DNA of 57,438 nucleotides, taken from the NCBI GenBank assembly GCA_000934665.2, contig KZ538629.1, positions 1-57,438 on the forward strand. Direction: 5' to 3'. Position numbers and translations under genes: made by a program. Shown here piece after piece: positions 5,260-54,402 of the stretch (position 1 is its first letter; the number at the start of each line of letters is the position of its first letter). The DNA is from Catajapyx aquilonaris. Its lineage: Eukaryota. The notes under the pieces are model-generated. The model did not search any database, was not told the origin of the DNA, and saw only the letters and a program-made list of their open reading frames with translations.

Positions 5260-6858
5260 ATGAAATTACTTTTCGTCTGGTTGCTGCTGCTGTCAGCCGC
5301 AATTGCTAGTGACGACAACGGCGGTGAATATTTATCAGAGGAAGATGTACGGAGGAGGGTACGCAGACAAGGTGAGAGAATAATAGATAAAATTGTGATT
5401 GTTGGGTATGTGTCTATACATGTTGCCTTGTAAAACATGCACTATTGGATTGTGCGAAGTACATCAGTACATTCAGGTACAAATGTAATTTCCTCACCGC
5501 AGATGTGTTCTTTCCTGATGAAGAACCTGAATCACTGGATGTGTCACAAGAATCGTGCACAACAACCCAAGGAAGGGATGGCATATGTCGACTTCTGTCA
5601 CGATGTCCAATTGTGCAGGACACATTACGTACAATGCGACCAACTCTGTGCAGATTCAATCAAAGGGAGCCTGTAGTTTGTTGTCCTTCGTCTGAACGTA
5701 AGTTTAAACAAGATATTTAAAAAAAATTATAATTTAAAATATCGTTTAAATTGTAGGGATTTCGGGGAGTACGTCTATCAGAGTGCGGAACGATGTAGGT
5801 CAGTGCGGAAGGTCAACTCGGCCTGATGTGATCTTTTCTGATACCAACAGGCTAGTAGTAGGAGGACGTAATGCTACTGTTGCGACCTGGCCTTGGATGG
5901 TACGTACAGCAAGTCATGTCCCACGTGTGTTTAATTGATTTATGGATATTGTGTCATTAGGCAGCTGTGGGAACACAAGGAAGGAGAGGCCCAGAGTGGT
6001 TTTGCGGCGGAGTTTTGATTAGCAATCAGTACGTTCTGACAGCAGCACACTGCCTCATCAAGTAAGTTATTCCCGCTCTAAAAAAAAGTCACGACGTTTT
6101 ACCCTATAACGTTGTCCAAACAGCAAGCCAGCGTTGGTTCGCCTGGGAGACCTGGACCTTTCAAGAAGCAACGACGGTTCCCAGCCTCAGGACGTGCCCA
6201 TAGAAAGCACCGTGTCTCATTCCCAGTTTTCCTACCCATCTCTGTACCACGACATTGCGCTAATTAGACTCAAAGAACCGATCAAGCCCTCTGTGTACAT
6301 TCGACCCATTTGTCTCCCATCATCAATCCTAGACATTGAATCACAAGATGTGGTTCTTCTCGGATGGGGTCGTACCCAGTTCTGTAAGTGAAATATTAGA
6401 GTTGTTCACTGATTATATTTAAGAAGGTCCCTCATAAAAAAATTGTTTTCAATGTCACAGTGGGGGACACTAGCAACATGCTTCAGGAAGCTGAACTGAA
6501 GGTTCTGAAGCAACGAGCCTGCGCTAGTGCCTATAGTGATCAGCCTCAACTGGTAGTCAGTCTTCCAGATGGGATTCAGCGTCATCAACTGTGCGCTGGA
6601 ATTCCAGGAGGAGGAAGAGATGCCTGCCAGGTATGCATTTGTCCAATTAATAATAATGGCATCTTCATTGATGCTGATTATTATTATATCTAGGGGGACT
6701 CTGGGGGTCCGCTGATGTACCTGAATCCATCTACTCAACGATGGACGGTGGCTGCAATTGTGACTGGTGGACTCGGATGCGGATTCGAAAACTTCCCTGG
6801 GATATACTCCCGGATTCCCAACTATGTGGACTGGATCAAGGCCAACATAAGACCTTGA
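5260..6858 (+). CDS. SP1: CLIP-domain serine protease, snake/proclotting-enzyme-like, catalytically intact, 7 exons
   Basis: Signal peptide [30 protein letters not shown]; six-Cys CLIP ([17 protein letters not shown]...LCRF...VCCP); activation NRL^VVGG; TAAHC, HDIAL, DACQGDSGGP; stop 6856-6858. Confidence 0.95.
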
Positions 6859-7534
6859 ATTGCAGTGGGCTAGTTTTGAAAAAAAAAAAAAAAACGAATA
6901 CTGTAGCTATTAATAAATAATAGGATATAATAAAATACAATTAATTAATTAATTAGAAATGTTATTTTGAACATATTAACTCACTTTCATATTAACTTAC
7001 CCATCTTGAGATAGACTACTACAGGAAATAAATGACAAAAAAAATTTGACATGTCGAGTTACCTAACTTGACTTGTTTTTGCAATTATGACGCTTTGCTC
7101 AGTTTATTCACAAATGTTCCGCTTAAATTATGATTAATCCGATGCACTGTACAGTACACCTGACGTGGGAGTTGTTTGATCATCAACTTCATTAGTCATG
7201 CAAGCCTAGTAGACAATTTCCGCAGGAAATCACCCATCGGTAATTTTTTTTATCTATTTTTAAACATCCTTATGCTATTTATGTAAGTGCAGCCACCTTT
7301 TCCTCGAATGTGTCGTCACAATGCAGACGCAATTGTGTACTATCGGCGGTATTTATAAACCAAGGGGAAAATATTTGTACTTAATATTCTCAGATGAATC
7401 AGAAAATTTATTAGTAAAAAAGTGAGGAAAAAGGCGACTTTCTGATGCTTATAACCAGGGGAGTCCTCCAACTTTATCGTAGTTGCATTCGACACATCCA
7501 CAGGGAAGGTCAAGATCACGTATACTAATCAGTC

Positions 7535-8968
7535 ATGAGAAAACACGGCTTTTTTCTCTCAGTAATTAGCGCTCTTCTGGTGTCAACAACACAGCACGAT
7601 TTGCACGAAATGTTTACTGCGACTCACCTCAGCAGACTTCGGAGGCAAGGTATATGTAAACTCTTATTGCAATAATCTGCAACGTAAGTAATTATTCCTG
7701 TTTTTCAATTTCCTTTTAATTGGGATTCAGATGTGTTTTTTCCGAGTGACACCGATAGTCGACCGATCATCTCCGAACCATGCACTACGTCAGACGGTAG
7801 TACCGGTACATGCGAACTTTTGTCAAGTTGCTCTCAGCAGGGTCTTGCAGTGAAGAACATGACGGTATGCCAGTATCGCGAAAAAGACTCTGAAGTTTGT
7901 TGTCCACTAGGTACGTATACCACATTTAAACGAGCAGAAAATTGCACATATGAATATTTCACCCCCAAAAAATGCATATTTATTGGCAGGCATGAACCTT
8001 CCTGAAAACTGCGGTCGGACTTTTCCGTCTTTCATAAATAACAAGAGGATTGTTGAAAGTCCTTGGATGGTAAGTGCAACATGCAACATGCAATTATGTC
8101 CGGTATGAAACCACGTTTTGTGTCTTAATTAGGCGATGGTGCTGGGGAATCAGCACTGGTTTTGCAATGGAGCCCTGATCAACCCTCGGTACGTTGTATC
8201 CACAGCTCACTGCGTCATTAGGTATGAATAAATCCGCTAACAAAAATATAATGTTAGTAACGATAGTTTTACCTCCGAATGCAAGGCAGCCCACAGTCGT
8301 TCAGCTGGGGCATTCAAGTATTTCAATCCGATATATGGATATCGAGACGACAATGATTCATCCACTGTACAAGTTCCCGGATATTTATTACGACATTGGC
8401 CTAGTAAGGATGACAGCTCCAGTCAGGTTCTCTCCTGGTATCCAGCCTATATGTCTTCCTTCCCCAGATGTAGAGGACATCAATGGGCATCGAGTGGAAT
8501 TCATTTCAGGCTGTGATTATGATTGTACGCACCATTAGCAGGTCATGAACCTGTACATAAATTGTGCCATTTTTTTCTCAGCGAGTGCAAGAGGTGTACG
8601 TAATGTGCAGATGTACGTGGTGAAGAGGACAGTGTGTGACAAAAGGTATTTGAGAGTACCCGAACTCTCCTGGAACTTCAGAAAAGGTGTGATGGAATAC
8701 CAAATGTGCGCAGGACCCATTGGAGGAGACATGAATGTATGCCAGGTATGATCCTCATTATTTATACGTGAATATTTTAAATTGGCAGTCAACTTCATTT
8801 CAGAATACTTTGGGAGGGCTTTTGGTGTATCTGAACTTGACATCGCAACAAAACGTGCTCGTGGGAATTCTCTCAAGAGGATCAGGATGCGACTTCAAGA
8901 CCTTGCCAGCAATCTTTGCCAAAATGTCGGCGTTTTCAAAATGGATTGCTAATATCATTATCCCCTGA
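7535..8968 (+). CDS. SP2: CLIP-domain serine protease homologue (non-catalytic, Ser195 to Leu)
   Basis: Signal peptide, RLRRQ-DVFFPSD, CLIP (CTTSDGSTGTCELLSSC...VCQY...VCCP), KR^IVESPWM, STAHC and YDIGL retained, GDSGGP replaced by NTLGGL; same intron positions as SP1. Confidence 0.9.
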
Positions 8969-9387: not shown

Positions 9388-11505
9388 ATGAGGGAATTGA
9401 CACCGTACCTTTTTCTTGGGATCTGTGTTCTGGTGGCCAGTAAAGAAGTTAAAGGCATGGATCATATTTTTTTTACGAGTTTTGGTTTATTGACTGCCGG
9501 TCTTTAAAAAAATATTTCATGACGCAATTCATTGGTCATTATTTTCCAGACCCATGTCAGCATTCTACCGGAAATCGAGGAATATGCAAGAGGTGGTCAG
9601 AGTGCCCCGAAATTCATAAAAAGCCATTCAGAATTTGCAAATATGAAATTCCCGACATGATCGTCTGCTGTCCAGATATCTCACTTCTTGGTAAGTTGTG
9701 ATTCTCTGTTACTGTATTGCATAGCATCAGACATAAAACTTATACTGATAGAAAGTGAAACAGATTGCATGATACTGATTTTTTTCCTTCAAAACCTCTT
9801 GTTGCATATACCAAACATGTAACATACAGTACTAATGCACAACATGCACCTATCCAGTACAGGACCTTGGCATCACAACCGAATACACCATCACAGAATC
9901 ACCTGCAGTTGTACCAAGTCAAGTAGCTGAAGAGGTTACAGAAGTACCAGAGGTCACCAAAGCACCAGAGGATATTCTGATGGGTGAAAGGCCATCGGAG
10001 ACCACAACGATGGCTCCGGAAGTGAGTATTGCGAGGCCGACTGCTCCTCTGTGGAATCCAGCGGACTACATGTTGTACACCACTCCAGCTGGACCAAAAG
10101 TGATCAGGACGCTTCCTCCTGAACTTTTGGCTATGTTAGCCATGCCAAAGAAACTGCCTAAATTGGGCTCCTTGTTCCGTCCAACCGAAGGTCCTCTGGG
10201 ATTCAGGTCGATGACTAATAAAGCAGCAGCGACCAACGTATCAGACCAAGTGATCGTGTGGCCCTGGATGGTACAGTTGACATTTCACTGTTAATAATAC
10301 ACCCTGTATCTCACTAGTTTCTTGTGCACTTGGCAGGTATCGTTAGGAAATCGCACCGCAATAAGTGACATCTTCGACATCTTCTGTGGAGGAGCTTTGA
10401 TCCAGCTTCGAGTGGTAATCACGACAGCAAGCTGTACTGCCAAGTAAGTAATGTGTCGAAAGGTCAGAAGGTGCTTTTACGCTTTATTTTGTATGTAATG
10501 TAAATTTTCTTCACAATCACTTAGGAGCCCAGACGTGGTCAGACTCGGAGTGGCAGAAATGCTGGATGTTGTGGCAATTCAGAAGGTTATAACGTACGAA
10601 GGGTTCAACGAGCTGAATTTGAAGGATGATCTGGCTCTGGTGATTCTGGAGCGAGAGAGCCGACCATCGCCGTTTGTTCAACCAGTTGGGCTCATTGTCG
10701 ATGGCACAGAGATTCCCCTGGAAGGAGAGCATAATATAATACTCACCGGATTGGGATACTTTAATGGTTCGGCGCAGTTTTTTTTACATAGTTGCTAGGT
10801 GTTTAGGTCAAAAATGACAAAACTGAAGGTCCACCACACCCCTCTAAGTTTCATGAGCCATCAATGGAAGTGGACCCATGAGCCACAGATTGATTCCCTG
10901 TGACCTATTCAATCTGCCCTACACAACAGAAACTAAACATTTTTCCCTTATAAAATTCATCAATTTTGCATTATAAAATAATTTCTATCCTTATGTCTTT
11001 AATAAGTCCACATGACGTAGTTTGGGAAATATTTAATTCTTCTACAATGTAACCAAATACTTTATTTTTCATCTCCATACATTTCTAATTTCCATCCAGA
11101 TGTAGGCAATGGATACGCATTTATTCATGGAGCCATAGACATCATGGATCGTGCACAATGCAACAAGAGGCTCGCTGATACCTCCATGTTTTCCAAAGGA
11201 ATTCACGACAATTATATCTGCAGCGTCGAACCTGATTATTTCAAGACACATTGCGAGGTAAGAAACACTGTCTTATTTAGAGGGAATGATTAAACATTAT
11301 GTATTATGTACTTACCATATTTTCTCCCTCATTTTCTAACTAGAATGGTGAAGGATCACCTTTGGTATACAGGAAGAATGAACATGAGAATATTTTAGTA
11401 GGCGTTCTTTCATGGAAGGAAAAATGCGACAATAAGCCTGCACCTTTCGTGTTTACCAATGTGATGAAGTATGGCTCATGGATTCAGAAACATTTGTTGC
11501 TATGA
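9388..11505 (+). CDS. SP3: CLIP-domain serine protease homologue with long Pro/Thr/Glu-rich linker (His to Ser, Ser to Glu)
   Basis: Signal peptide MRELTPYLFLGICVLVA; CLIP PCQHSTGNRGICKRWSEC...ICKY...VCCP; linker exon 9858-10270 ending VWPWM; FCGGALI...TTASC; DDLAL; HCE-NGEGSPL; stop 11503-11505. Confidence 0.88.
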
Positions 11506-13983: not shown

Positions 13984-15559
13984 ATGAATCTTCCTTTACC
14001 ATTTCGAGTCATCCTTTGGTGTTTCCTGCTTGATTTGCGAGTGTTTGTGCAAGGCCAGGCGGAGGAAGGAGGTAAGTGCACGAATCGGAACTCTGGTACT
14101 GACGGCCAACTATGACTTCCAAACAATGCCAGCAATGATGCAATAATTAAAGGCCCAGTGACGTCAGTACTGAAATTCCGTGTCATAATTATGAGGGCTA
14201 GAAACATTGTGCATAATTTTAAAACGCGAATTTTTTATATATACATATTTTTAAAAATCTATGCTTCAGTTCATAGCTGCAGGAAAGAAGCTAAGGATAA
14301 TGAGGTCCTTATGGAGTGTACAACAGCGAAGGGAAAGGCTGGTCTGTGTATGCCATGGACAAAGTGCAACCACGTGCAGAAGACGTACAGGGAGGTTGCG
14401 TACCGTGTGTGCAAGTACCAGTACCCGGACATGACCATCTGCTGTCCGAGATTAAGTAGGTGAGAGCTGTTCCAGGCCGATCGGGTTGCTTTATTCACAC
14501 CGATTTGATCCTTGCAGCTTTCGCTGCGGATGAGGTGCTGCCTCCGCCTCCGGAGCCGGAGCCCGAGCTAGGAGTCAGAGGATTGGGCGGAGAAGGTGGT
14601 GATGCTTATGACATTGATATCCAGGAGTCGGAGGAGGACGTCCACAGCGTGCAGAGGACCCTCAGGCCTTGGATGGTAACGTTGTTATTGGCTGCATGTT
14701 CGGTTGGGTTCACACGGCCGTCCTTGTCTCTCGGTCTTTGATCATAATTATTATTGGAAACCGACACAACGACGCCCGTGTGAATCCAGCTTCAGGCAGT
14801 TGTGGGTTGCTGAATGTTGCCATTTCCAGGCATCTGTAGGCAAAGTGGAGGATGCAGACGACAGGCGATTAGTCTTCCTCTGCTCTGGAGCACTGGTCCG
14901 GCCTAAATATGTACTCACATCTGCACAGTGTATCCTAGAGTAAGTGCAAGTGTGCAGGGTTGCCTGATGTTCAAGAACTAAGCTTAATACTTTAATTCAA
15001 GTGAACCCACATTCGTTCGTGTCGGACTGAAGAATCTGAGCGGAAAAGGCCCACCCCACAGAGACTACGACATCCAGGGCATCGTAACCCACGGCAAATT
15101 CGCTCCTCCAAACCTGCAGTACGACATAGCCCTGGTCCGACTTCACAGGAAGGTCAAGATGTTAGATGACATCAAGCCCGTCAAGCTTCCATCTGGGAAA
15201 CTGGCAGACGACATCGTTGGAATGGCTGGAGTCCTCACCGGAATGGGATACAACGGTACATATACGGGATGGATTCCTTATACGAGTGTACAGAGGATGT
15301 TTCTTACTAATCCATCGGTTCAATTGATATAATCTTCAGCGTACGACTGGAGCCATCGCCTGATCGAAGTGTCGCAAAAGGCCATCAGCCAGGAAGAATG
15401 CTCATCTAAAGTGGCACAATCAGAGTTCTTCCCCGACGGTGTAGGAGAAAAGTCATTCTGCGCTATCGTACCACCTGGATTTAGAGACAAATGTGAAGTA
15501 AGACAAATTCATTGTTTGGTCTCAACGTTCACGAATATCACCGGAAAAAAACTGTTCCC

Positions 15560-15631
<72 letters not shown>

Positions 15632-15820
15632 GGCTGCTACTTCTGCTGCTGCTGTTTGTAGGTGAATCTTGGAGGGCCTATGGCGATTGAGGTTAATGGA
15701 GAATGGACTCTGATTGGTATTGTCACCGCCGAGCACAGTTGCGACCTTCCTGATGCCCCGAGGATTTACACCAGGATTTCTTCATACGCCAAGTGGTTGA
15801 AGTCACAGATGAAGAAGTAA
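13984..15820 (+). CDS. SP4: CLIP-domain serine protease homologue (His to Gln, Ser to Leu)
   Basis: Signal peptide MNLPLPFRVILWCFLL; CLIP CTTAKGKAGLCMPWTKC...VCKY...ICCP; acidic Pro-rich linker ending LRPWM; LCSGALV...TSAQC; YDIAL; KCE-VNLGGPM; stop 15818-15820. Confidence 0.9.
15561..15630. repeat. (ATT)n microsatellite in last intron of SP4
   Basis: About 23 ATT units with one ATC interruption. Confidence 0.95.
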
Positions 15821-18035: not shown

Positions 18036-20377
<2,342 letters not shown>

Positions 20378-21598: not shown

Positions 21599-24560
21599 AT
21601 GAGTGAATTGGGATGGTGTTTGTTGTTGGGATTTGGCGTGTTGATCACCGTTCAAGGAAAAAATGATCCAGGTAGGATTCGTGTGTGTCATCCGGACGTG
21701 AACTCGGGACAAGATAGTGATAACAGATAAGCAATCACAACTTATCTATACTGTGCCATATTGCTTTTACGTGTCCAGAAATTCAGTTGCCATGTCTTCC
21801 CCGATATTGCAACCGATAAGGAAACTTATATGGAGTTCCTATGTGGAGTTCGTGCCCTCAAGTTCTCTAACCCATACGACATGTACGCAACCAACCTTAG
21901 TCTGGCTAAGCCTCATTCTGAAAATGCCAGCGAAGGCCTCCACTAATTATTATAAATTTTAAAACAAATTGAGAATTGAAATGTTGATTGATCAGTCATA
22001 TCTGACTTTGACGTATGAGTGTTTGAAGATTGCAGGCTGCATCAGCACTTACATGGGGATTATTCTTTTCAAAGGCTGTAATTTATGCGTCACAATACTA
22101 AATTGACCATTGGAAAGAAAATGTTATAGGCTGCACTGGACAATGCCCAGTACAATTTCTACTAAAATGTGACTTTGATAGTTCTGGATTTCAAGTCTTC
22201 AATTTTTGTTTTAGTATATAATATTTGAGGCATTATTGAGGGTTTCTTTCATAATAATTTGAGGTTCAATTATGTTCAAGTGACACTGGTTATGTAGGTT
22301 TCTTTGTTCAATGTGACAATCCAGATCTTCACACTGACAGACTGCGCACATTGCCATTAGTTATTGTACTAAGCATAATCCCATGTTTACTCTGATAGTA
22401 CATAAGCGAGTACTATATGCAATATTGTTCCGGTTATCTACATTGCAGCATTGAGCTGTCTCTGTTTTCAATGAGCTGTGCTTGTTAACTGCATCAGTGA
22501 AACAATGGGTTTTTCTGCAGCCTGGTACTTTACACTGGGATAAAGTATTGTTGAAGTATTCAAAGCATTTGAAAGTGACGTCAAGATCATGGGACAAATC
22601 ACCTGATAGAAATAAGATTGTCTCTGCTGACAGCCAGCAGCCAGACAGTCATTGTCTCCATGTCTGGTCAAACCTTCAACATTTCCCACTTAATTTAGGT
22701 GTCCACACACCAAAATAATAACAGCATGTAGTTCCTGGCATTACTGTCGTTTTTGGGCTAATTATCCCTGCATGACAGTCATGTGATCATTTAATCCTAC
22801 GTATTATCGACTTCTCGTAACACTTTTTATTGATTAACCATGATGTACATATAGTGAATGAAAATCATTAGAGCTGGATTTTTGTCACCATGTAGTGTAA
22901 TCTCAACACAAATCAAACTTGAAGTCTAGGTTCATATTGCTTATTATTTTATTCTTGAAGAAAACTCATCTGACCGGGCGAGAGTGTTGAATATGTGGTC
23001 TGCATGTAATGTGTCCACACTTTATATACTGGCCTGATGTTGAATTTCCTCTCTTTTTTCAGCGGTTATACTTCCCCAAGAATGCGGACGATCGATATAC
23101 GCGCCATCTCCAAGAACAAAACGAGAATTACTTGGATTTAGGGGTTGGACATGCTAATATAAACACACGTGAATAAGAATGTTGGATATTCCATTGGTGC
23201 AAACTTTTAGTTTGATGGGTCATTCCATGTCAATACAGACAAGTTGGAGTCTCGATCATATCAGAATTTTATATTTAAAAAAATCATGTGGTACACACAT
23301 ATGAGCTGTTGCTAAAAGTCAGGGGGAATGATACGGAAGCCCTGAGGGGCATGCGTGTTACAATAAGAACTCTACAGGAAATAAATTGTCAGTCCTTGGC
23401 TCCATTGTTGACGAAAGACGTTGCCATATCTCCTTGTGATTTTCATCTGGGTCGCTCTAATTTTGTTTTTAGCAACGCCGCATATGTATGCACGTACATG
23501 ATTTTTTAATATCAAATTCTGAGATGGTCGAGCCACCAACTTGTCTGTATTGACATGGAATGGCCCTGATAATATTAATAATAATTGTGGATTAGACAGA
23601 GGTATGCTGTTGTATACGTCCAACACTATGCACTGAATTCAAAATACATAAATAGGGCCTATACTTCATGCAACTTCGAGCTACTGGAAAAATTAAGCAT
23701 CGCAAATGATAATATTTAATATTCCAAATATTTGTAAGGTAATTCAAAATTACAGACAAAATGTATTTGTGAAACCATAATTTATTAAGAATATTTTTCA
23801 TATAGTTGCTTGCTTTGGGAGGAATATTGACAAAAATTAAGTTTAAGACTTAACATGGAGAGTAATCAGAGAGATATTATTCATATGAAGGTTTGAAGCC
23901 TGAGGACTACATTATCACCCATGTTTTCTCATGGGGAACTGTAATTTCTCCTTAATGAAGCTGGCCAAAAGGTCAGCACGTATAGATCAAGGACAGCATT
24001 ACACAATACCTAATGCAGCTTTGTCATATACTGTAAACATAATTCTTCTGCAAATCAGAGTGAACAACTGAAATAGTCAGTAAAGCATTACGAAAAAAAA
24101 ATCTTAGATCAAATCTGAACGATGATGAGGTTCTACATAAAAATAAAATTAAAAATAAAATGTTTCTGCACATGCCTATGAATAATTCAACGTGTTTGCA
24201 AACATTGATTGCCGAATCTCCACGAGAAATATTATTGAGACGCTTTAATGTTAGAAGCACACTGAAAGTTACAAATAATATTCAGGGTGTTATTCTGCCA
24301 AAGGTGACAGTCCTTGGGTAGAACTGACAGATTAGTCGCCCCTGGCAATCTTGAAGTGCAGTAATGTTTTATTCCGTTCAATTGTTGAAAATTTAATTTT
24401 GTAAATGGCGTAAGACAAAATACATTCCTCACATACGGTACCTGAGCAGCTCAGAGTGAGAAAATAAACTTCAAGAATCGAATGAGCTCCACCTGCACTG
24501 AAATATGGCCGCTATTTTCTTTACAAAGGCAGGAGTGACCAATCCATAAATTCTCCCCCA

Positions 24561-24615
<55 letters not shown>

Positions 24616-26069
24616 CCGTCTCCTTAGACAAAGCAACAATATGCACACGTGTTAGAGGAAGGCTATTATTCACAATGGAATATCCAACAAAAGGACACGA
24701 AATGGAAGAATCGCTATCACATTAGCTTGACCAATAGCTGTTTCTGATTTCTTTAGTTGTTGGAGGCGTAGCAGCTGATCCAGACGCCTGGCCTTGGATG
24801 GTAAAGTAGTCACATCGTTAATTACTCATTTTAAGTGCTGTGTCTCCTGGCATGAAACCAATTATCACACAACAAAGTAAAATATTACAGTACATAACAC
24901 TATATGGAACACGATATTTGTCCATGGAAATTCATCGTCATATTCGTGTCCCTTATAGGTCACAAGTAACTCATAATGACCATTCATTTTGTCTTTGATT
25001 TGTTTTTGACCTCGGGGCAGTCAAAACACAAAAATCCTCAAATATAGCAGTTTTTTTCCCAATCAAGTGGGCCTGAATGTTGATAGACCATCTCGGATTT
25101 TTGTGAAAATAATAACAGCTGTACACACCTATTCGATAACACTGCATATCAAGTTTCAGCCAAATTGCTAAATACCGTGGGGAGGGAAAAAATCACGAAA
25201 CTTTGAAAAATTGGCCTTTTTTGGATAATTGTTCGGTTATTGGAAGTGGTCAACATCCAATCAACATATACATCGAATGGGAGAGAAACGCTGGTGGAAT
25301 GCGCCTATGGAATTGGTTTTTCTGAAAAATGCACATGATTGTGTGGCATGTCATCAGTCGCATGTCCAAGAATTTGGCTCCATTAAAATTAATTGTAATT
25401 CGGCAAACATATCTGTTATTTTCTCACGAGACATGCATGACCTAGGATTGAAACTGAACGTATTGAATCTTGTGTGAGTCACAACTTCTGCCACCAAATA
25501 TGGCTGTTCTTACGCAAATACATCACTAATTTTTGGGGGGTCTAAACACTAGGACATGTTATACTGAGCATATGACCGCTGGAATGCCATATAATGTTGT
25601 TCTGAGTGCATTTTCGAAAGAAAATAAATAATTCCATAGACGCATTCTACTCGTTTCTCTTTCATTTGACGTTGATTGGGTTTTGACCACTTCCAATAAC
25701 CGAAAAAATTATCCACTTGATTGGGAAAAACATGCTATATTTGAGGATTTTTGTTCTTTGACTGCCCCGAGGTCAAAAACAAATCAAAGACAAAAGGAAT
25801 GCCCATGTGTTACTTGTTACCTAAAGAACACGAATATGACGATGAATTTCCATGTACAAAAGAAAGTCAAATTTTGTTGCCTAAGTGTAATCATTCAATT
25901 AGTTAAACATTTACTTAATCCTTACTATGGCAAAAGTGAGCGTACCGTACTAATGTGTCCACTCTTAGAGCAAAGTTGTCCAGATCTATTCATATTAATG
26001 AATATTTTTTTATAAAGAACAAAGCATTCGTTTTATGCTAGGAGCCACACAACTACAGTAGTAGTAGTA

Positions 26070-26140
<71 letters not shown>

Positions 26141-34372: not shown

Positions 34373-35537
34373 TCAGAAAAAGAAAGAGGGATTGCAGAAA
34401 ATTTGCTGTTCTTTGTTAGCTGTTTGGTTGTAAGTGATAGTATCGCAGCACCTCCATGAGAGGCCCTCGCTCTTTGAAAACAACCCCAGAAGCTTATAAT
34501 AAGTCTGTTTGTCCTCATATTTCTCATCCTGCCTTCCCATCATACTCCTCTCTGCTATATCAAACACATCATCGGGCTTATCGACACACCCAATCATAGG
34601 GTGTCTCAGGCTGAAGCACTTCATGCGACGACCGTCAAAGTATCTTGTACCAACTAATCTGCTGATGGTGTCATTGGCAGTCTTCAGGCAACGGTGGAAC
34701 TTCGCATCGCAATTACAAGTATTCCTGAAATCATTCAAAATGTTCAAGTTCATGCAAACCTATCCGTCAGTTTTTAAAAAAAAGTACACTGCTGTCAAAT
34801 CCCTTCCAAACTTTGCATTTTGTGACAAAAGTATGAAACTCGGTACATTCGTTCTTTGGGCACTTCAGTGCATATCTGGACGTGGGCCACGATCGGTGAC
34901 ACTATCGCATGTTGCACAGTCTGTTACATTTGTCAACTCCGTAAAAGTGACATCTGGCAGGGTCAGTCATCGTGGCCCCACGTCTAGACATGTTCAGAAA
35001 TGTCCAAAGACCAATTATGGCGAGTTTCAGGTTTTTATCACCGAAGACAAAGTCCGAAAGGTATGCTGCACCTGGTAGATATGGCAACCCTGCGAAATGG
35101 TTCGGCCATCGCGGCTCCACGTCCAGATATCCTCGGAAGTGTCCAAAGAACGAGTGTACAGAGTTTTATACTTTTGTCACAAAATGCAACCTGGACTATC
35201 AGGCATCAGGGGTTACTTAACAAAAAATTAATTCTTGAGCTACCAAATGTTCAAGCAGGAAATGTTCTCAGTTTCACCAAATGTTTCAGCAGTGAAAAAT
35301 ATGAAAACCTTGTAATTCACAACGTTTGTTATAATTGTACTGATAGCGAACGATGGACCAACTTACATGGCGTACAGCTCCTTGTTGCAAACACGTCCCT
35401 CACAATCATCCTGATCAATTGTATCCTCACACATGTCATGCTTGCGACAACACTTGTCAGCTTTCGCAAAAATTCCTGTACTCAGTCCAGTCAGCTTCTT
35501 GGCCTCGTTTATTTCTCCGCACCACTTTGTTCCTTCC

Positions 35538-35604
<67 letters not shown>

Positions 35605-36060
35605 TAGAAGGATGCACTCGTTGGAAAAGTGACAAAAATGCTTATTACTGTCACTTTTCCAGCCGGAAAAGGTTTCCTGGCTCCGGTGCAAGAGACCCTG
35701 AGCTAAAATTCGAAACCTGCCTGGAAAGTATAGCTGCCAGTTTTTTCTCTCGAAAAGTTGCACCCAGTCCAATCTGGTGGGAACCTTTTTGGTGGTTTCC
35801 ATTTCATTCATGTAAATGCAAATGTCCTCCAGAATAGTCTTCATCCTCTCCACAGCCACCGTTTCATCCTGCGGTTTCACGATATCTCCCACGATTGGCT
35901 TGAGATAAGGAATGTATTCGATGTAATCTTTGGAGCAATCCACTGGCACTGGTTCCTTTTTCTTCTTTGCTCCATCTGATGAGGGTTCCAACTGGGTGAA
36001 GGTCGGGATGGGCAAGATGACCGACACCAGCACTAGGACGACGGCCGGTAAAAACTGCAT
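34373..36060 (-). CDS. PLA2-A: secreted phospholipase A2, group III (bee-venom type), HD dyad intact
   Basis: Exons 36060-35721, 35532-35367, 34724-34373. Signal peptide MQFLPAVVLVLVSVIL, propeptide, YFPGTKWCGEIN, DKCCRKHDMC, CNCDAKFHRCLK, VGTRYFD...KCF, C-terminal CC...YNQTA...QIFCNPSF. First intron needs a GC donor; an extra in-frame intron in the last exon cannot be excluded. Confidence 0.92.
34813..35189. mobile_element. MITE / foldback element in PLA2-A intron 2
   Basis: TTGCATTTTGTGACAAAAGTATGAAACTCGGTACATTCGTTCTTTGGGCACTTC is mirrored by GAAGTGTCCAAAGAACGAGTGTACAGAGTTTTATACTTTTGTCACAAAATGCAA; inverted arms extend about 100 bp. Outer CACTGCTG/CAGCAGTG at 34787 and 35294 may be the true ends. 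Confidence 0.8.
35538..35603. repeat. (AAT)n microsatellite next to the PLA2-A exon 2 acceptor
   Basis: About 22 AAT units. Confidence 0.95.
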
Positions 36061-37221: not shown

Positions 37222-38296
37222 ATGGTGGACCTGAGGGAGTCACTGGCTTTGAGGATTGCCTTCCTCGGGGTGGTGATGGCATGGTCAACGGACAAGGAGG
37301 CGAATTCGCTTCTGGACGACACGTGGGAGGTTGCCAGGTGCACTTTAGAAGACAAATTAGTGGACTGGGTCGCCACGAAGCTCTTCGGAGTCATGAACGT
37401 CCCGCCCAATATGCCCACCAAGATCGGATTTGTGTACGAGTTTTGCACGTTCATGGATCTCATGAAGAAGGAAGGTCTGGCCTCTTTCAGATCAGATTGG
37501 ATCTCGCTCGTGGAAGGAGCTGAGGATGGAAAATATACTTTCCCAGGTTAGCGGCTAATATACTTTTTGAATCGGCTTAATGTATTGGTACATCCTCACG
37601 GTATACTGCTGTCACTTTCAGAGAGAAAGTGTTAGTAATAGCAATAGCTGTAGTATTTAATCTGCATACGCATATTCTAACAGAGGTTTTTTTTTCCTTT
37701 TTCAAAATGGAAGGTACAAAATGGTGTGGAGAAACGAACATTCCCAAGTCATTTGACGAAATTGCGCCTGCCCCTTTTAACAAAGCCGACGTTTGCTGCC
37801 GAGAGCACCACAAATGCATGGAAGTCTTGGTATCTGGCAGATGCAAGCATGGAATCTGCAACACCAATCCGTACACCATGTAAGAAGTCTGTAGTCATGT
37901 TTTCTATTTGGTTTATTGTTACGACCAGCAATCCTGTATGCATACAGGAGGCACTGCTCTTGTGATCAAGAATTTCACGCCTGTCTGAAAAACACCAATA
38001 AGGATCTCATTAGTTTATTTGTGGCGATCCGTTTTTTCGACGGGATTCATCTGCAATGCTTCATGAAATCCAAGGTTAAAATCGGCTGCAACGAAACGTA
38101 AGTCCCAAATCCCTCCTATGTAAATCCATTTCTTCTGTACTTGTAACACTTTTTTTCCAGGGAGAAACATGAGTGCTGCTCGAATTACGTGTATAACCAA
38201 ACGGCACCGGAGAAGTATCAGATATACTGCAATCCATCTTTCAGAGGCCATCTCAACGAGGAACACCATAACGTCCAACACCACCCCTACTTTTAA
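37222..38296 (+). CDS. PLA2-B: group III secreted phospholipase A2 homologue, predicted inactive or Ca-independent (HD to HH)
   Basis: Exons 37222-37546, 37714-37879, 37948-38097, 38161-38296. Signal-like N-terminus, YTFPGTKWCGETN, DVCCREHHKC, HCSCDQEFHACLK, IRFFD...QCF, CC...YNQTA...QIYCNPSF, His-rich tail. First two intron positions and the 166-nt exon 2 match PLA2-A. Confidence 0.92.
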
Positions 38297-38958: not shown

Positions 38959-40301
38959 ATGAGTGAACGGACAAGGTTGGTCTTTCTAGGACTGGTCTTC
39001 ACTGCGGTTTCAAATCTAGGAGAAGCGCATGTGTTTATAGAAGAAGGTAAATTGACAACTTTTGATGTATCTATACTCGTAATAAAAATTTTCCTGCCAT
39101 AATATTTTAGCTATTTTGTCTGTTCAAGGTTGGAAAGTGTCGCTGCCTAAATTTTGTGGGAAAGCAAACAATGACAATTCAGAAGGTCGCATAAGTCTTG
39201 GAGGTCGAGAGGCTGACGTCCATTCGTGGCCATGGATGGTAAATACCGTTTAATTATTTCACAAAATGTATGAAATGTACGTATTATTTTAACAGTTGCA
39301 ATTCTCTGGTTGCAGGTTGCTTTGTACGCTAAGGTTAAAGAAAACTTTGAGTTTTCTTGCGGTGGGGTCTTGATAAGTCCTCATTACGTCTTAACCGCCG
39401 CTCACTGCCTGTCACAGTAAGTTATTTCACATTAAAACTCACATTAAATTGTGTGCTGTTTTGGACAACTGAGAAAATGCCAGAATCACATTTTGGTCAA
39501 AATTGAGAAAGCTTTTTGATTGATTACTTTATAGGTCTAAAAGCTATTAAAGACAAGAAATGTTAAAGGTTTTTTCTGTAACACTTTACCTCTAGGCCTC
39601 TCGCATATGTGCAGTTTGGAGGCCACACACTGCACACTCACACACCTAGAGCCATACCCATGGTCTTAGGGGTTGAAAGCGTAATACCCCATCCGGATTA
39701 CACCGAAGATGACCTGCACAACAACGACCTAGGCCTCGTTCGCTTAGCCAAAGAAATTCTCCTGCAGGATAAAATACATGTCGTGTGCCTGCCGACATCA
39801 AGTTTAGGAACAATGGAAGGAAAGCGAGCCGTGGCAACCGGCTGGGCAGACAATCATATAAGTAAGTGATCACTGTCACATATCATCTCAGTCAGTAGCA
39901 ATAATTATTACTCTTTAAACAGGTTCAGGAAGTGACGCACTGCAACAAATTCAACTGAAAATAATTAGCAACAACATATGTCGGAAGAGGTATCCCTTCT
40001 TGCTGGAATCCACCATGTGCGGAACAGTCATGGGAGGAAAAGGAAGCGAATGTTACGTAAGAGTACTAGATGCCAGGCCAAACTTTTGGTCTAAGTAATT
40101 ATTGATTAATGTACATGCGGTTTGTATTGCTTTCAGGTTGATTCTGGAGGACCTGTAGTTTTCAAAAATCCAAGAAGTGGTCGCTATATGCTGATTGGCA
40201 TAGTCTCAGGAGGAATCGGGTGTGCAGCTTCAGAAAGCACAGGGGTATTCGTGAGGGTATCCAGACATATAGGCTGGCTTAAGAGTAATGTAAGGCATTA
40301 A
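38959..40301 (+). CDS. SP9: CLIP-less serine protease-like protein, triad intact but Gly193 and activation site atypical
   Basis: Signal peptide MSERTRLVFLGLVFTAVSNLGEA; KFCG; EGR^ISLGG; TAAHC, NNDLGL, TGWA, SECY-VDSGGP; stop 40299-40301. Confidence 0.9.
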
Positions 40302-41825: not shown

Positions 41826-43306
41826 ATGGAAAAATCATTCCTTTACATATTAATAACAGCAATCTGCTTAGTGGCACAGATTTCAGCAGGCCGAGATAAG
41901 GATAAGGGTAATTATTTAATAGAATGTAGTTTGTCACACATGCGCTCATTCCATGCCTGTCTCAGGTTTCAAACAATTTTCATCAAAATGTGGGCAGGTA
42001 CCTATACAACTCGGTAGCAGGATTGTAGGAGGACACACATCAGAAATCAACGCCTGGCCTTGGATGGTAAGAACACATGTTTGATCTGAAACTATTTACA
42101 TGAGACCACGTATTATGCCTTTGAAAATATTTCAGGTTTCCATAGGTTACATGGAGAAGAAGGTGTTTGAAATTCTCTGTGGCGGAACAGTCATCCACAA
42201 GCGCTACGTCTTGACTGCTGCTCATTGCTGCCCAATGTAAGTACTGCATTCCAACATACACAAAGGTTTTATTGTTAGGAGGATTGGTCACGAAATCCGA
42301 GATATTTGGAATATTTTTATTGTTGTCAAAATGTACACCAGTTCACGTCACGTACAAAAGTAGGCCTGCAAAAAGGCCAGCAAATATTCAACTAACTATC
42401 AGTCTATCACTAACGGATTATATTCACAACAGGGACCTTGAACAGGTGCGTCTTGGGCATTACGACCGGGGCGAAAGTACGGCTCATGTCATTGACATAA
42501 AAGTGTCTAAACTTATTTGCCACGAACAATTCGACATCAAGACGTACGAGAATGATGTGGCTCTTGTCAGACTGAAAAAGGAGATCCAATTCTGTGACGA
42601 AGTTCGTCCAATCTGTTTGCCACCACCTGACATAGAGAGGTTGAAAAACTTTGATGGGAAGAATCTGACTGTTGCAGGATGGGGGTTAACATCCGAAGGT
42701 ACCAGTTGAAAACCATTGCTGATGTTGAGTCCGTTAATTTTTAGATAACATTGAACCAATTTGGGAATCAGGTGGAGAACAGAGTGACGTACTGCGAGAG
42801 GTTGTCGTGTATGGCATCCCCCTAGAAGAATGCAAAACCAAGCATAAGAGAGTTACTAACACAAGAATTTGTGCAGGATATCCAGGTGGTGGGAGAGACG
42901 CTTGCCAGGTAGGTACCAGGTATACAAGAAGTACAAACCTCCCTGCCCACCCCGCTAATTGCATGCCATTTTCATTCACTCCACTGTGTAATTCAACAGT
43001 TTCTATAGCAGGTCATAAAATATATTAAGACTGTGAAGTTACCTTGATTTGGTGTGGAGAATATTGTCTCTTATTTCGTATACCCTTCACGCAAATAAAA
43101 GTAGGATAATTTGGCACGTTTGTTCTCAGGGTGACTCAGGAGGACCTCTGATGTACTTGCACAAGCCGAAAGGTTCCTCTGGAACAGTCTACTTTCAAGT
43201 TGGGATTGTTTCTTCTGGAAAAGGTTGCGCACGACCTGGCTATTACGGGCTTTACACTCGCTTGACTGATTATGTTCCGTGGATTTTGGGGAAAATTTCA
43301 AAATAG
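41826..43306 (+). CDS. SP10: CLIP-less trypsin-like serine protease (HCC subfamily, type A)
   Basis: [33 protein letters not shown]^[45 protein letters not shown]; stop 43306. Confidence 0.95.
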
Positions 43307-44043: not shown

Positions 44044-45345
44044 ATGGAAAGAGTGGTTCTTTTCTTATTAATTGCAGCAATCTGTATCGTGTCAGAGAAT
44101 GAAGCAGACCAAGATGAAACATACCGTAATTTATTATTTTATGGAGTACATTTTTGCCTATAGATTTCTCATTACATTTTGCCTTAGATTTCAAACAGCT
44201 TGTTACATTCTGTGGGGACGCTATAAATCCACTTTGGAAAAAAAGTGGAGCCATTGTAGGAGGGACTGAGGCACATCCCAACGCCTGGCCTTGGATGGTA
44301 AGTTCACCTTTAAACTGACATGAAACGATTGACATGAGGCATATGTCTGACAGGCTGCAATAGGAAACTCTCAGTACGGATCCAGCTTCTTCTGGGTCTG
44401 TGGTGGGTCCCTGATTCACAAGCGCTACGTCTTAACTGCTGCTCACTGCTGCCCAGAGTAAGTATTCCAATCTGTATACATCACAACTCTCTAATATTAA
44501 GTTGTGCAGATAACTTATACGGAAAAATGGCAGAAGTGTTGCTGATAATATATGTATAATCTGTTATACATTTCAGATTTTCGAGATGGAAAGAAGTCCA
44601 CGTGCTTCTTGGACAACACAATATGATTAAAAATACGGATGGGGCCGTTGTAACAGTCGTGGATAAACGTTTTTGTCACGAAAAATACAACCTCCGTGGT
44701 AACTCCGAGAATGACGTCGCTCTGCTCAGATTAAGAGAAGACGTCTACTTCAGCGACACCATTCGTCCAATTTGTTTGCCTCCTCCTGAGAAAGATTGCC
44801 CAGACGCCGGCCAATATTTTGATGGGAAGACGCTGACTGTAATAGGATGGGGACAAACGTCCGAAGGTACTTGTTTGCCAACCCATTTGAAATATCATTG
44901 AGCCAATTTGTGAATTATAGGAGGCTACGAAAGTGACGTACTACGAGAGGTTGACTTGTATGGCATCAACATAGAAGAATGTAGACGAGCCCATCCGTAT
45001 ATGATTCGCGACAACAGGCTTTGCGCAGGAGTCAGAGGTGGTGGAAAAGACGCTTGCCAGGTATAGGTATCACAAACCAATCAATTCTGTATCACTCATT
45101 TGCTGTGGAAAATAATGCCTCTAATCTGGGAAGAGAGATGCAAACAATATAGTTGACTAATAATCTTGTTTCAGGGTGACTCAGGAGGACCTTTGATGTT
45201 CAAGTTTACAAGACCCTCAGGACCTATCTACGTTGTGGTTGGCATCGTTTCTGGTGGAGAAGGTTGCGCACGGCCTGATAAATACGGGATTTTCACTCGG
45301 GTCTCTGATTATATGCCTTGGATTTTGGAAAAAATTGAAGAATAG
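44044..45345 (+). CDS. SP11: CLIP-less trypsin-like serine protease (HCC subfamily, type B)
   Basis: [34 protein letters not shown]^IVGG; TAAHCCP; RFCHE; NDVAL; KDACQ-GDSGGP; stop 45343-45345. Confidence 0.95.
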
Positions 45346-45626
45346 CTTGCGTTCTATTCAAGGTCCCAATATATTAAATTTTTGAACTCACCGGTCAGTA
45401 TGCATAATACCGTCCAATCCCAGGTTTTACATATGTGCTGTATGAGAGCAATATTGCTAATACCCAAGGAAACATGCGTTACAAAGTATGTGTGTGTTCC
45501 CATTTGTGCAGAGAAAGCATGGGATTTCCACTGAACATTTTCTTGCCATGATGGACTGTAAAAATGCCTGATTTGAATGTTGTGGAGATAATTTAATATC
45601 AACAGTCCTCTTATCAACTGCCAAAA

Positions 45627-49579: not shown

Positions 49580-49690
49580 ACGGGTAATAAATTATTACAC
49601 AGAATACAGTTTGATGTTGTGCTACTTACACGATGTCTCAGGTTTCAAGCAATTTTATCCAAACTGTGGGGAGACACGGTATACCTACGT
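49580..49690 (+). pseudogene. relic of a type-A HCC protease (intron 1 plus start of exon 2)
   Basis: GGGTAAT...AGAATACAGTTTG...TGTCTCAG|GTTTCAAGCAATTTTATCCAAACTGTGGG (FKQFYPNCG) matches SP10 41906-41995 (FKQFSSKCG); no IVGG or later exons follow. Confidence 0.75.
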
Positions 49691-50473: not shown

Positions 50474-51934
50474 ATGGAAAAAGCATACCTTTTCATACTA
50501 ATAACAGCAATCTGCTTAGCGTCTAATCTTGCAGCAGGCAGAAAAAAGAATGGAGGTAATTATTCCATAGAGTACAGTTTGTCAGACTCATTACAGTCAT
50601 GATGTCATAGTTTTCAAGCAACTCTTTCCGAAATGTGGGGACACTCGTCTCTTGGATGCACCCAAGGATGTGCCTGGTAAAAGGAGTGGCGCAATTGTAG
50701 GCGGACACGAATCAGAGCTGAACGCTTGGCCGTGGATGGTAAGGACACGTTTTTGACACGATAGGATTGACCGATGAGATATGATTGTGATTGGAAATTT
50801 CAGACTGCTTTGGGATTCAGACTCAGAGTGGACAATCGTTTTCAACTGGTGTGTGGTGGGGCCCTGATCCACAAGCGATACATCTTGACTGCTGCTCATT
50901 GCTGCCCACAGTACGTATTGTGTTCCAACAGAAGGTGAAGCTATAATGGCAACAACAATAATTGCGTTGTTAAAATATTCACCTCACATTCAAAAGAATC
51001 TTTGTGCAAACAACCAGAAAAATTCATTCATGTTGATAAGGAACTAACTGATTTCATTCACAACAGGAGAATTGAAATTGTTCGTCTTGGGCATCACGAC
51101 CTGACCAAAGAGGCGGATGGCGTCATTGACGCAAAAGTGGACAAATTGATTTGTCATGAACAGTTCAAAATCGAGACGTACCAGGACGATGTCGCTCTTG
51201 CCAAGCTAACAAAGGACATCGAATTCAGTGACGTAATTCGTCCAATATGCTTGCCACCACCTGGCAGAAAGTGCTTCCAAAATTTTGATGGGAAGGATCT
51301 GACTGTTACCGGATGGGGAAAAACATCCGAAGGTATTCGCAATTGATATCCACTGACGTTGATTGCGTTAATTTTAGTTAACATTGAGTCAATTTGCGAA
51401 TCAGGTGGAGCACAGAGTGACGTACTGCAAGAGGTTGACGTGTATGGCATCAGCTTAGAAGAATGTAAACAAGCCTATCCGACAGTTATTAACAACAAAA
51501 GACTTTGTGCAGGATTTCGAGGTGGTGGGAAAGACGCTTGCCAGGTATGTATCAGCTAATGTCTCAATAAGTCTAACATAATTATAGCTCACCATTTATT
51601 GTAATATTATAACATTTCCATCCATTCAAAAATACAAGATGTACCGCAACAGTTTCTATAGCAGGGCATAAAATTAAGATTGTGAAGTCACTCTGCTTTG
51701 GTGCTTCAATGTCGATATCCATTACATGAAAGTTGGATAATAATCTAGATAATCTGTTTTCAGGGTGACTCAGGAGGACCTTTGATGTACAAGGCGACAA
51801 GACCCTCTGGACCTGTCTACGTTGTGGTTGGGATTGTTTCTGCTGGAAAAGGTTGCGCACGGCCTGGATATTACGGGATTTACACTCGCTTGACTGAATA
51901 TGTTCCGTGGATTCTGGAAAACATAGCAGCATAG
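50474..51934 (+). CDS. SP12: CLIP-less trypsin-like serine protease (HCC subfamily, type A)
   Basis: [35 protein letters not shown]^IVGG; TAAHCCP; LICHE; DDVAL; KDACQ-GDSGGP; stop 51932-51934. Confidence 0.95.
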
Positions 51935-52187
51935 CTTGCATTTTATTCCAGGTCCCAATTTATGCAATAATGATAAATATGAAAGCAAAAAAATGTTCTT
52001 CCATAAATTAATATCTTGGTGTTGAGTTCTACAGCAATCAATTGTATACAAATTCCATCCGCTTCATCCTGAACAATAATGTAGTGTAATTTGTAACATG
52101 AAGCTTTTCGGTGGAAAATATCAGTCTTTATAGTGAGTTACATGATTCCTATCAAGGTTGGATAATTATTTGAAAGATTTTTTACAG

Positions 52188-52310
52188 GGTAACTCGGGAG
52201 GACCTTAAAGTGACAAGACAATCAGGAGATGCCTTACGTTGTGGTTATTGGGATAGTTTCTTTTGGAATATAGGTTGCGCACGGCCTCATTATTATGGGG
52301 TTTACACTCT
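52188..52310 (+). pseudogene. decayed duplicate of the terminal protease exon
   Basis: Acceptor then GNSGGP followed by TAA and frameshifts; GGGATAGTTTCT...GGTTGCGCACGGCCT...TTTACACTC matches the last exon of SP10-SP13; upstream GTTGGATAAT copies the SP12 last intron. Confidence 0.85.
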
Positions 52311-52954
52311 GTATAGTTTCGAACCTGACAAGTGAGCAAGACTAAATTATCTACGTGTTAAATTGTTATTTCCTGTGACTTTTAAATGCATTAAATAAAC
52401 AATTTCAAATTATCTGGGTGTATGAAAAAAATGACTAAAGATAGGCACATTACAAGTTTTGAAATTTTGTTCGAAAGGTTGCACTGAAGGAGAGCTTGCA
52501 ATAAACCATATCATGCAGAAAATTACGCCAATTTCTCCTAACCACGTATTAAATATTTCAGCTCATACTGACATTTGACAATACCTGCAACATCACCTGT
52601 TGACATATTTTCGTGTAATTTCAATACGCATTACTACACTCTGTCTGAACCAAAGAAAAGGGCACATATAGTTGCATGAAATTATTTATACTGTATTTTG
52701 ACCACATTGTATGCTAGTCGCATTGTAACGTCACCTCGTCACCAATATTGAAATATTAGAGCTTATCCGTATGGACGTGGCTTTTTTTGTTAAAAGATAG
52801 CTCCCTAGGCCTATGTCGTAAAATAGTCGTAAAATAGTTATGTTTCTTGGCGATTACTTATACAAGAAAGCATATTCTTAACTGACGAAAATACCCTGGG
52901 ACATTCTTCAAGCATTCCTGCGCCGGACAGTGTCTGCGATCCTGCTTTTTGGTG

Positions 52955-54402
52955 ATGGGGAAAATCCCTTTTTCAGTTTTAATAATTATAGCAATCCATC
53001 TCGTATCTGAGAATGAATCACGCCAACGAAATGAGAATCAGGGTAATTATTTTATGGGGTAGAGTTAATTTTTCTAATGAACTCATTACATTCGGCCTCA
53101 GATTTCAAACAGCTTGATTCAATCTGTGGGGTCCGGAAGAATCGATCTGAAAAAGAAAAAAGTGCTTCCATTGTGGGGGGAAATGAAGCAGGCCTCAATG
53201 CCTGGCCTTGGGCGGTAAGTAATACTGCATACACCTTTTCATTACGTACAACAACGAAGCGATTGTCATGAGGCATATCTTTGACAGGCCGCATTGGGAA
53301 GATATGAGGTCGGCGACACATTTACCCTGATATGTGGTGGAAACCTCATCAACAAACGCTACGTCTTGAGTGCTGCTCACTGCTGTCCAAGGTGAGTATT
53401 CCAAGTCAACCTGTACACCACATCGGATTACCTACAGTATAATCATATGAAAATATGGCAGAAGTGAAATATGGTTTATTGTTACAAAGCTTGGAGGCGA
53501 GCAAGGATTTCGTTCGTGTTCTTCTTGGACAACATAGCCTGAGCAGGAAGACGGATGATGCCATTGCATTACGGATGGAAGATTTGGTTTGCCATGAAAA
53601 GTTCAATGCTGATACGAATGATAATGATATCGCTATTGTCAGACTGGAAAAGGATGTCACATTCACTGATGCCATCCGTCCAATTTGCTTGCCTCCACCT
53701 GAAGAAGAGTTCTTACAGGGTTTTGATGAAAAGACTATGACTGTTGTAGGATGGGGAAGAATAACGGAAGGTATGTCCGTTTAATACTAATAATCACTGC
53801 CGTTTAGTCTATGAATTGTTACTAACGCTGAGCCTACTTGTGAATTAGAAGGCCCTGTGAGTGACGTACTACAAGAGGTTGATGTATATGGCTTCAACAT
53901 AAAAGTATGTGTAGACGCCTATCAGTATCTCGTTGTTATTACAGACAACAGGATTTGCGCAGGAGTCAGAGGTGGTGGAAAAGACGCTTGCCAGGTTGGT
54001 ATAAGACCAAAGATTTTAGTAACCGGTAGGCTAGTAACACAAGTTATGTGACGAATGAGAAAGGATGGTTTTCCATCCACTCTCTGATGATTAGCGACTG
54101 TGTAGTCCAAAGTACAAAACCAATCATACATCCGTCGCACTTCTTTGCAGTGTAAAAAAGTATTGCCTCTCTCATCATATGCATGATGCTAATTAAAGTC
54201 GGGTAATATTATTTGTCATGTTTCTTTGCAGGGCGACTCAGGAGGACCACTGATGTACATGACAGAGAAATCATCCGGACCCGTCTTTTATCTAGTCGGA
54301 ATTGTTTCAGCTGGTTTTGGTTGCGCGCGACCTAATTTTTATGGCCTTTACACCCGCGTGACAGATCAAATTCAGTGGATTTTGAAAAACGTATCAGACT
54401 AG
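52955..54402 (+). CDS. SP13: CLIP-less trypsin-like serine protease (HCC subfamily, type B)
   Basis: MGKIPFSVLIIIAIHLVSENE; FKQLDSICG; KEKSAS^IVGG; SAAHCCP; LVCHE; NDIAI; KDACQ-GDSGGP; stop 54400-54402. Confidence 0.95.

Follow-up and report, generated by a model that had tools for sequence, protein, structure and literature searches.

What does a long head-to-tail series of secreted S1-type serine protease genes represent when a pair of group III phospholipase A2 (PLA2) genes is lodged in its middle: an immune-type cascade locus, a battery of digestive enzymes or the genes of a glandular secretion? The question is raised by contig KZ538629.1 of Catajapyx aquilonaris (assembly GCA_000934665.2), of which positions 1 to 57,438 of the forward strand were analyzed; this whole stretch of 57,438 nucleotides is referred to here as the window. 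A six-frame motif scan, tblastn and a purpose-written spliced aligner together identified 13 complete S1-type open reading frames (G1-G13, Table 1), all on the forward strand within 5260..54402, the array running from the ATG of G1 at 5260 to the stop codon of G13, the last base of which is 54402. Clip-family proteins supply the secreted zymogens and non-catalytic cofactors of arthropod haemolymph cascades that drive melanisation, Toll signalling and clotting. We give slightly better than even credence to the view that the window carries an old tandem array of this family, made up of clip-family zymogens and cofactors. As it stands, the locus is an ordinary kind of arthropod protease cluster, of an already known type, and its unusual point is a non-basic activation site in seven of the ten zymogens.

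The gene models are consistent with one another. In the six-frame scan, repeated WPWM, AAHC, GWG and GDSGG motifs all fell on the forward strand and a single CCRKHD motif on the reverse strand; tblastn with one hand-built gene as query yielded 13 related loci, and the models were then built over several rounds of spliced alignment. The window is rich in introns, and in the 13 models their borders are GT..AG throughout. Four catalytic-domain introns are common to all 13 genes at identical places and in identical phases: after WPWM (phase 0), a few codons past AAHC (phase 2), a few codons past GWG (phase 1) and immediately 5' of GDSGG (phase 0). The leader exon terminates in phase 1 in every gene, and a hydrophobic N-terminal leader was called in each product by a simple rule of our own. 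Pfam PF00089 (Trypsin) was matched above its cut-off by both single exons scanned (G5, E 3.3e-12; G12, E 1e-12), and all 13 catalytic domains could be aligned both among themselves and to S1 domains from elsewhere. Thus, the 13 co-oriented, leader-bearing genes and their four common intron positions, which had been proposed from a sequence-only reading with the same end points, were recovered in full. That reading had also counted 13 proteases; the number of S1-type genes stands, but only ten of them (G1 and G5-G13) carry the complete His57/Asp102/Ser195 triad, which is incomplete in G2, G3 and G4. Lacking a working triad, G2-G4 are not enzymes but clip-bearing protease homologues; G1 and G5 are clip proteases.

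The assignment to the clip family starts from a six-cysteine pattern, C..C..C..C..CC, that occurs in one exon each of G1-G5 and is absent from G6-G13, in agreement with the earlier placement of CLIP-bearing genes at the left and CLIP-less genes at the right of the array. The five exons are mutually similar (E 1e-4 to 1e-10). No decayed clip exon was found in or before G6-G13, and nothing else in the window scored under E 0.03. Since Pfam CLIP does not pass its cut-off in G2, G3 and G5, these three were assigned by their cysteine pattern together with their paralogy. Two further matches to the six-cysteine pattern, at 2918 and 31121, were rejected as clip exons.

The arrangement of the exons points to how the clip-less genes arose. 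In G1-G5 the clip exon directly follows the leader exon and is symmetric (phase 1-1), so its removal keeps the reading frame. The leader exon ends in RRQ in G1, G2, G5 and G7, and in G8 the corresponding residues are VRR/Q (the slash marking the exon end); likewise, a DCGRAN linker is present both in G5, where LPADCGRAN lies in the exon after the clip exon, and in G7, where ASSDCGRAN lies in the exon next to the leader. Intron 1 is short in both G7 (147 bases) and G8 (72 bases) and therefore holds no clip-exon remnant. Because G7 and G8 retain the exons that flank the clip exon of the clip-bearing genes, a clean loss of this exon in the clip-less genes is well supported. G6-G13 have the catalytic-domain gene structure of G1-G5, minus the clip exon. 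Additionally, two cysteines, one in the CG motif of the pro-segment linker and the other Cys122 in P(I/V)C(L/V)P, are both kept in 11 of the 13 genes and both lost in G3 and G4 (the Cys122 motif of G8, RPVCVP, was read by eye). Dropping the symmetric exon would thus leave a leader, a short pro-segment with a tethering cysteine and the protease domain. Each catalytic product would be secreted as a zymogen and activated by a single cut before (I/V)(V/I/A)GG, and the cleaved pro-piece would stay linked to the enzyme by a disulfide that the conserved cysteine pair suggests. In this way the array shows in one place a route from a regulated cascade protease to a simpler secreted enzyme: the clip exon is gone, but leader, tethering cysteine and catalytic exons are all retained, giving a clean loss series within one array.

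Phylogenetic analysis places the clip-less genes with the clip proteases. In a quick IQ-TREE search of 88 catalytic domains, all 13 genes fell inside one clade of 50 sequences (SH-aLRT 91), in which 24 of the 37 foreign members have a clip pattern upstream of the catalytic domain according to our own cysteine rule. The clade holds sequences named snake-like, grass-like, PPAF-like, MP1-like and 'venom protease', and fish chymotrypsin, a mite chymotrypsin-like elastase and a shrimp trypsin-1-like sequence lie outside it. Within it, G10-G13 form one subgroup (100), G1, G5 and G6 join G2-G4 in a second (92) and G7 pairs with G8 (87), while G9 is unplaced. Accordingly, the phylogenetic check proposed with the sequence-only reading, namely whether G6-G13 nest within the clip-protease clade, came out in favor of nesting, in a sample that includes few gut enzymes. 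The related idea of an immune-type clip locus shedding its clip domains is likewise well supported by the intron phases, the common leader ends and linkers, the kept cysteine pair and this clade.

Most of the copies are old. Pairwise identity among the 13 ranges from 23 to 60 %, and only G10-G13 (48-60 %) and G1, G5 and G6 (44-50 %) are closer than the rest; most members are mutually 23-50 % identical, as distant as they are from foreign clip proteases, the best of which are 35-44 % identical and come from oribatid mites, a sea spider, a centipede, a barnacle, a lobster and insects. By these identities the copies are old, G10-G13 excepted. Forcing the 13 genes to be monophyletic costs 1.26 log-likelihood units (p-AU 0.488), so that a single local origin is allowed by the alignment. 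The earlier proposal of local duplication is therefore compatible with the data, though most copies are equally far from foreign clip proteases. A word-indexed protein search with a G7 exon returned no match, a null of little weight. DNA-level repeats are confined to G10-G13. Direct repeats link 41779-45379 with 50427-54436 (G10/G12, 77-89 %; G11/G13, 62-75 %), and their spacings of ~8.6 and 8.9 kb suggest that a G10-G11 block was duplicated into G12-G13, around the lectin and transporter genes. The whole-gene ratio of nonsynonymous to synonymous substitution rates (dN/dS) among G10-G13 is 0.40-0.67 at dS 0.37-0.90; for older pairs (G1, G5, G6, G8) the ratio is not usable, their synonymous sites being saturated.

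These features of G10-G13 also lend themselves to a digestive reading, in which the clip-less genes, above all G10-G13, are gut enzymes and their position next to immune-type clip genes is accidental. Short pro-segments, trypsin-like Asp189 pockets in G6, G8 and G10-G13, recent tandem or block duplication of G10-G13 with repeats at the DNA level and relaxed constraint would all suit such enzymes. We nevertheless regard this reading as unlikely, since the linker cysteine and Cys122, a two-chain feature of clip proteases, are kept, G11-G13 have Ala or Ser and not Arg or Lys before IVGG, and in the tree, for which few gut enzymes were sampled, the clip-less genes nest among the clip proteases and apart from the chymotrypsin, elastase-like and trypsin-1-like sequences.

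The activation sites set the array apart from a conventional clip cluster. In most clip proteases P1 is Arg or Lys, and the P1 His of Drosophila Persephone is unusual (PMC5823974). Here P1 is Arg in G6, G10 and probably G9, and is non-basic in seven of the ten zymogens: His in G5, Leu in G1 (with an Arg one residue before it), Gln in G7 and G8, Ala in G11 and G12, and Ser in G13. Position 189 of the specificity pocket is Asp in G1, G5, G6, G8 and G10-G13, Gly in G7 and Ser in G9. With non-basic P1 residues, most members would not be activatable by the trypsin-like (Asp189) members, and their zymogens would need other activators, possibly G7 (Gly189) or G9 (Ser189), or a two-step trimming. In G11-G13, Lys-Lys, Lys-Arg or Lys-Glu-Lys lies three residues ahead of the P1 Ala or Ser (44169-44297, 50662-50738, 53162-53214), an arrangement that would fit two-step activation. 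The array thus gathers many zymogens with unusual activation sites.

Several known systems can be compared with the locus. In insects, serine proteases and their homologues as a rule occur in tandem clusters; those of clip proteins, for example in Bombyx mori, are similar mixtures of secreted S1A clip zymogens and non-catalytic homologues, arranged head to tail and produced mainly by tandem duplication (PMC2996933). In contrast to these, the window presents a stepwise series of clip protease, clip homologue and clip-less protease with unchanged flanking exons; its nearest foreign proteins are only 35-44 % identical, seven of its ten catalytic members lack an Arg or Lys at P1, and a PLA2 pair lies inside it. 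Persephone, with its His at P1 and its two-step activation (PMC5823974), resembles G5, which has a clip domain, a long linker and a His before VIGG, whereas the tree joins G5 to G1 and G6 and not to named insect proteins. Likewise, the sequences named 'proclotting enzyme' from Nymphon and Hyalella share the combination of clip domain, linker cysteine and trypsin-like domain, and over its full length G1 matches that of Nymphon best (33.5 % over 379 residues), but they fall in a neighboring clade to that of the window genes.

The PLA2 genes bear on a different explanation. As the sequence-only reading had it, two group III PLA2 genes occupy the middle of the array, between G8 and G9; they are not co-oriented, however, but divergent, lying head to head with their starts 1.2 kb apart. 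PLA2-A consists of a leader, an N-terminal region of ~90 residues, the PLA2 domain and a cysteine-bearing C-terminal tail, and a tail with further cysteines is present in PLA2-B as well. Both match Pfam PF05826 in two exons (PLA2-A, E 1.8e-13 and 4.3e-9; PLA2-B, E 7.6e-13 and 1.1e-7). Their domains are 49 % identical over 45 residues and their ~90-residue N-terminal parts faintly similar, and the two may be viewed as a diverged, divergently transcribed pair of paralogues lodged in the array. An exon atlas look-up with PLA2-A returned PF05826-type clusters only (best score 0.88), and a word-indexed protein search with its last exon gave no match, which is weak evidence. The group III PLA2 of bee venom (1poc, 8pih) can be aligned with both proteins over the calcium loop and the CCxxH(D) active-site helix; in the alignment with 1poc the catalytic His is kept in each, followed by Asp in PLA2-A and by His in PLA2-B, and in the calcium loop Ile (PLA2-A) or Thr (PLA2-B) stands in place of the second Gly. 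From these residues, PLA2-A probably still hydrolyses lipid, and PLA2-B, without the calcium-binding Asp, is probably not an enzyme. In snake venom Lys49-type PLA2 homologues, which belong to group II, the calcium-ligating Asp beside the catalytic His is lost while the fold is otherwise intact; PLA2-B parallels them in this loss, differing in its PLA2 group (III versus II).

Transcript evidence comes from one public sequencing run, coded X1, for which neither kind nor tissue is on record and whose contigs give no level, tissue or strand. X1 holds 30 % of the sampled words of 33001-43000, and its contigs were compared over 27500-47499, a stretch that leaves G1-G5, G12 and G13 outside; parts of it, such as 28167-30167 with the 5' half of G7, are without cover, and such gaps carry no meaning. 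The contigs skip DNA at GT..AG, or at CT..AC for the gene on the minus strand, and hence derive from spliced RNA. Among the 15 joints, ten belong to proteases (three in G8, four in G9, one in G10 and two in G11), four to the PLA2 genes and one to the transporter described below; all ten protease joints coincide with modelled introns within the stated slack, those of G8 being 32460>32533, 33336>33456 and 33573>33654. A 973-nt contig runs across all exons of PLA2-A, and three joints fall in PLA2-B. Additionally, one contig has a loose end at 44281 in which GGG precedes the 27 bases that open G6 exon 3; as this points to the single GGGGT site at 23141, it places G6 exon 2, captures the junction of exons 2 and 3 and indicates that G6 is transcribed. 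X1 contains spliced transcripts of six protease genes, G6 and G8-G11 among them, and of both PLA2 genes. Local depth peaks (29.6) in the space separating the PLA2 starts (36838-37504), where a number of contigs have loose ends at 36842-36955; the upstream region common to both genes may contain a repeat or give rise to a transcript of its own.

S1 proteases and group III PLA2 co-occur in arthropod venoms, and the clip-less proteases and the PLA2 pair could accordingly form a glandular secretion cluster, whose genes would be active together in a gland for venom or saliva and whose products would reach prey or host. The leaders on all products would be expected of such a cluster, spliced transcripts of G6, G8-G11 and both PLA2 genes occur in one run, the dN/dS of G10-G13 (0.40-0.67) would be compatible with it, and the sister group of G10-G13 includes 'venom protease' sequences, a name that NCBI assigned by homology only. 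However, the tissue of that run is unrecorded, and finding transcripts together in a single run does not amount to co-regulation. The bee venom enzyme is compact (133-134 residues), whereas each window PLA2 is roughly double its length and carries a long extension at either terminus. Moreover, the array contains three clip-bearing non-catalytic homologues, which fit a cofactor role in a haemolymph cascade better than a gland cluster, and most of its copies are old, with no recent burst. Group III secreted PLA2 is tied to insect immune responses through eicosanoids (PMC11253937, PMC6375067), so that a PLA2 next to immune proteases is explicable without venom. Taken together, we consider a gland cluster distinctly improbable; should the clip-less genes and the PLA2 pair prove to share one gland, the locus would illustrate clearly, at the genome level, how effectors can be recruited from an immune locus.

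A broader scheme, to which we attach a similarly low probability, would turn the locus into a self-contained secreted protease network derived from an immune cascade locus. In this scheme, the non-basic zymogens would be activated by G7 or G9, by foreign proteases as in the case of Persephone, or by trimming after KK or KR before SGA/IVGG, and the clip-less members together with the PLA2 and pseudo-PLA2 would act as an effector cocktail, of an immune kind or, if the animal is venomous or parasitic, as venom or saliva. Clip-family and related S1 proteases also serve insect dorsoventral patterning and reproduction, but a role in moulting or cuticle remodelling, embryonic patterning or reproduction (seminal fluid) is very unlikely here, as the relative that would speak for it, the Bombyx 'male reproductive organ serine protease 2', falls outside the clade of 50 sequences.

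The interpretation of the locus as an old clip-family array has to be set against several observations that count against it. Signal peptides were called by a home-made rule alone, and Pfam CLIP (PF12032) exceeds its cut-off in only two of the five clip exons (G1 and G4). The tree is a quick one whose key node has an SH-aLRT of 91 and in which G2, G3 and G9 are long branches; its reference sequences were chosen by likeness to the clip family, with few digestive enzymes available to draw the clip-less genes away. The dN/dS of G10-G13 is in keeping with relaxed constraint or with diversification, a pattern that digestive and venom families also show. The sole transcript source is X1, with its unrecorded tissue and with contigs that cannot rank expression. 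Lastly, kB-type GGGRNNYYCC sites number six in the window against 6.5 expected, which lends no support to immune regulation, the motif itself being taken from insects and vertebrates.

Table 1. Features of the array and its surroundings. Positions are those of the window; a slash marks the activation cut.
Feature	Position	Strand	Description
G1	5260..6858	+	Clip-domain serine protease; 7 exons, 381 aa; triad present, Asp189; activation region TNRL/VVGG
G1 clip exon	5503-5697	+	Pfam CLIP 22.4 bits (cut-off 20)
G2	7535..8968	+	Clip-domain serine protease homologue; 343 aa; NTLGG for GDSGG; N-terminus shortened, IVE..SPWM
G2 clip exon		+	Six-Cys pattern; Pfam CLIP 14.0 bits, under cut-off
G3	9388..11505	+	Clip-domain serine protease homologue; 424 aa; His to Ser (TTASC); GDSGG to NGEGS
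G3 linker			~140 residues, Pro/Thr/Glu-rich; without linker Cys and Cys122; splice acceptor inside linker uncertain
G4	13984..15820	+	Clip-domain serine protease homologue; 370 aa; His to Gln (TSAQC); GDSGG to VNLGG; without linker Cys and Cys122
G4 clip exon		+	Pfam CLIP 20.2 bits (cut-off 20)
G5	18036..20377	+	Clip-domain serine protease; 376 aa; full triad, Asp189; P1 His (NPH/VIGG)
G5 clip exon		+	Six-Cys pattern; no Pfam CLIP match
G6	21599..27432	+	Clip-less S1 protease; 301 aa, 7 exons; R/VVGG; Asp189
G7	29520..31029	+	Clip-less S1 protease; 295 aa; Q/IAGG; Gly189
G8	32346..33818	+	Clip-less S1 protease; 304 aa; Q/IVGG; Asp189
PLA2-A	34373..36060	minus	Group III secreted PLA2; 3 exons, 285 aa; CCRKHD; calcium loop WCGEIN
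PLA2-B	37222..38296	+	Group III PLA2 homologue; 4 exons, 258 aa; CCREHH; calcium loop WCGETN
G9	38959..40301	+	Clip-less S1 protease; 287 aa; EGR/ISLGG; Ser189; VDSGG (Gly193 to Val)
G10	41826..43306	+	Clip-less S1 protease; 287 aa; GSR/IVGG; Asp189; AAHCC
G11	44044..45345	+	Clip-less S1 protease; 298 aa; KKSGA/IVGG; Asp189
G12	50474..51934	+	Clip-less S1 protease; 300 aa; P1 Ala; Asp189
G13	52955..54402	+	Clip-less S1 protease; 300 aa; KEKSAS/IVGG; Asp189; WPWA
Relic of G10-G13-type last exon	52188..52308	+	QGNSGGP then stop; GCARPHYYGVYT; E 0.007-0.013
Possible relic of G10-G13-type linker exon	49644..49682	+	FKQFYPNCGETRY; E 0.12, weak
DEG/ENaC amiloride-sensitive sodium channel exons	2918-4820	+	PF00858, best exon E 4.9e-23; just left of G1
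C-type lectin domain, C-terminal exon	45597-45875	+	PF00059, E 8.1e-9; between G11 and G12
MFS/SLC22-like transporter, multi-exon	46319-49400	+	Weak PF07690 match; between G11 and G12; X1 joint 47195>47257
Assembly gap	54959-55096		138 N

The array is not made up of S1 genes and the PLA2 pair alone, as the supercluster first described would have it: both of these components are present, but the lectin exon and the transporter, which that description omitted, interrupt it. The lectin exon is covered by an X1 contig of depth 222 that has four base differences and is unlike the window beyond both ends, and this contig probably represents a highly expressed paralogue elsewhere. From 54402 to the window end, no S1 motifs were found.

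A few gene-level details remain. G6 has an additional phase-1 intron precisely at its activation site, and the donor of its exon 1 is uncertain (21671, 21680 or 21716). Three introns of this gene measure 1.4-1.6 kb, introns elsewhere being mostly of 55-240 bases. Long microsatellite runs lie in introns of PLA2-A (35530-35614), G4 (about 15500-15650) and G6 (about 24500-24560).

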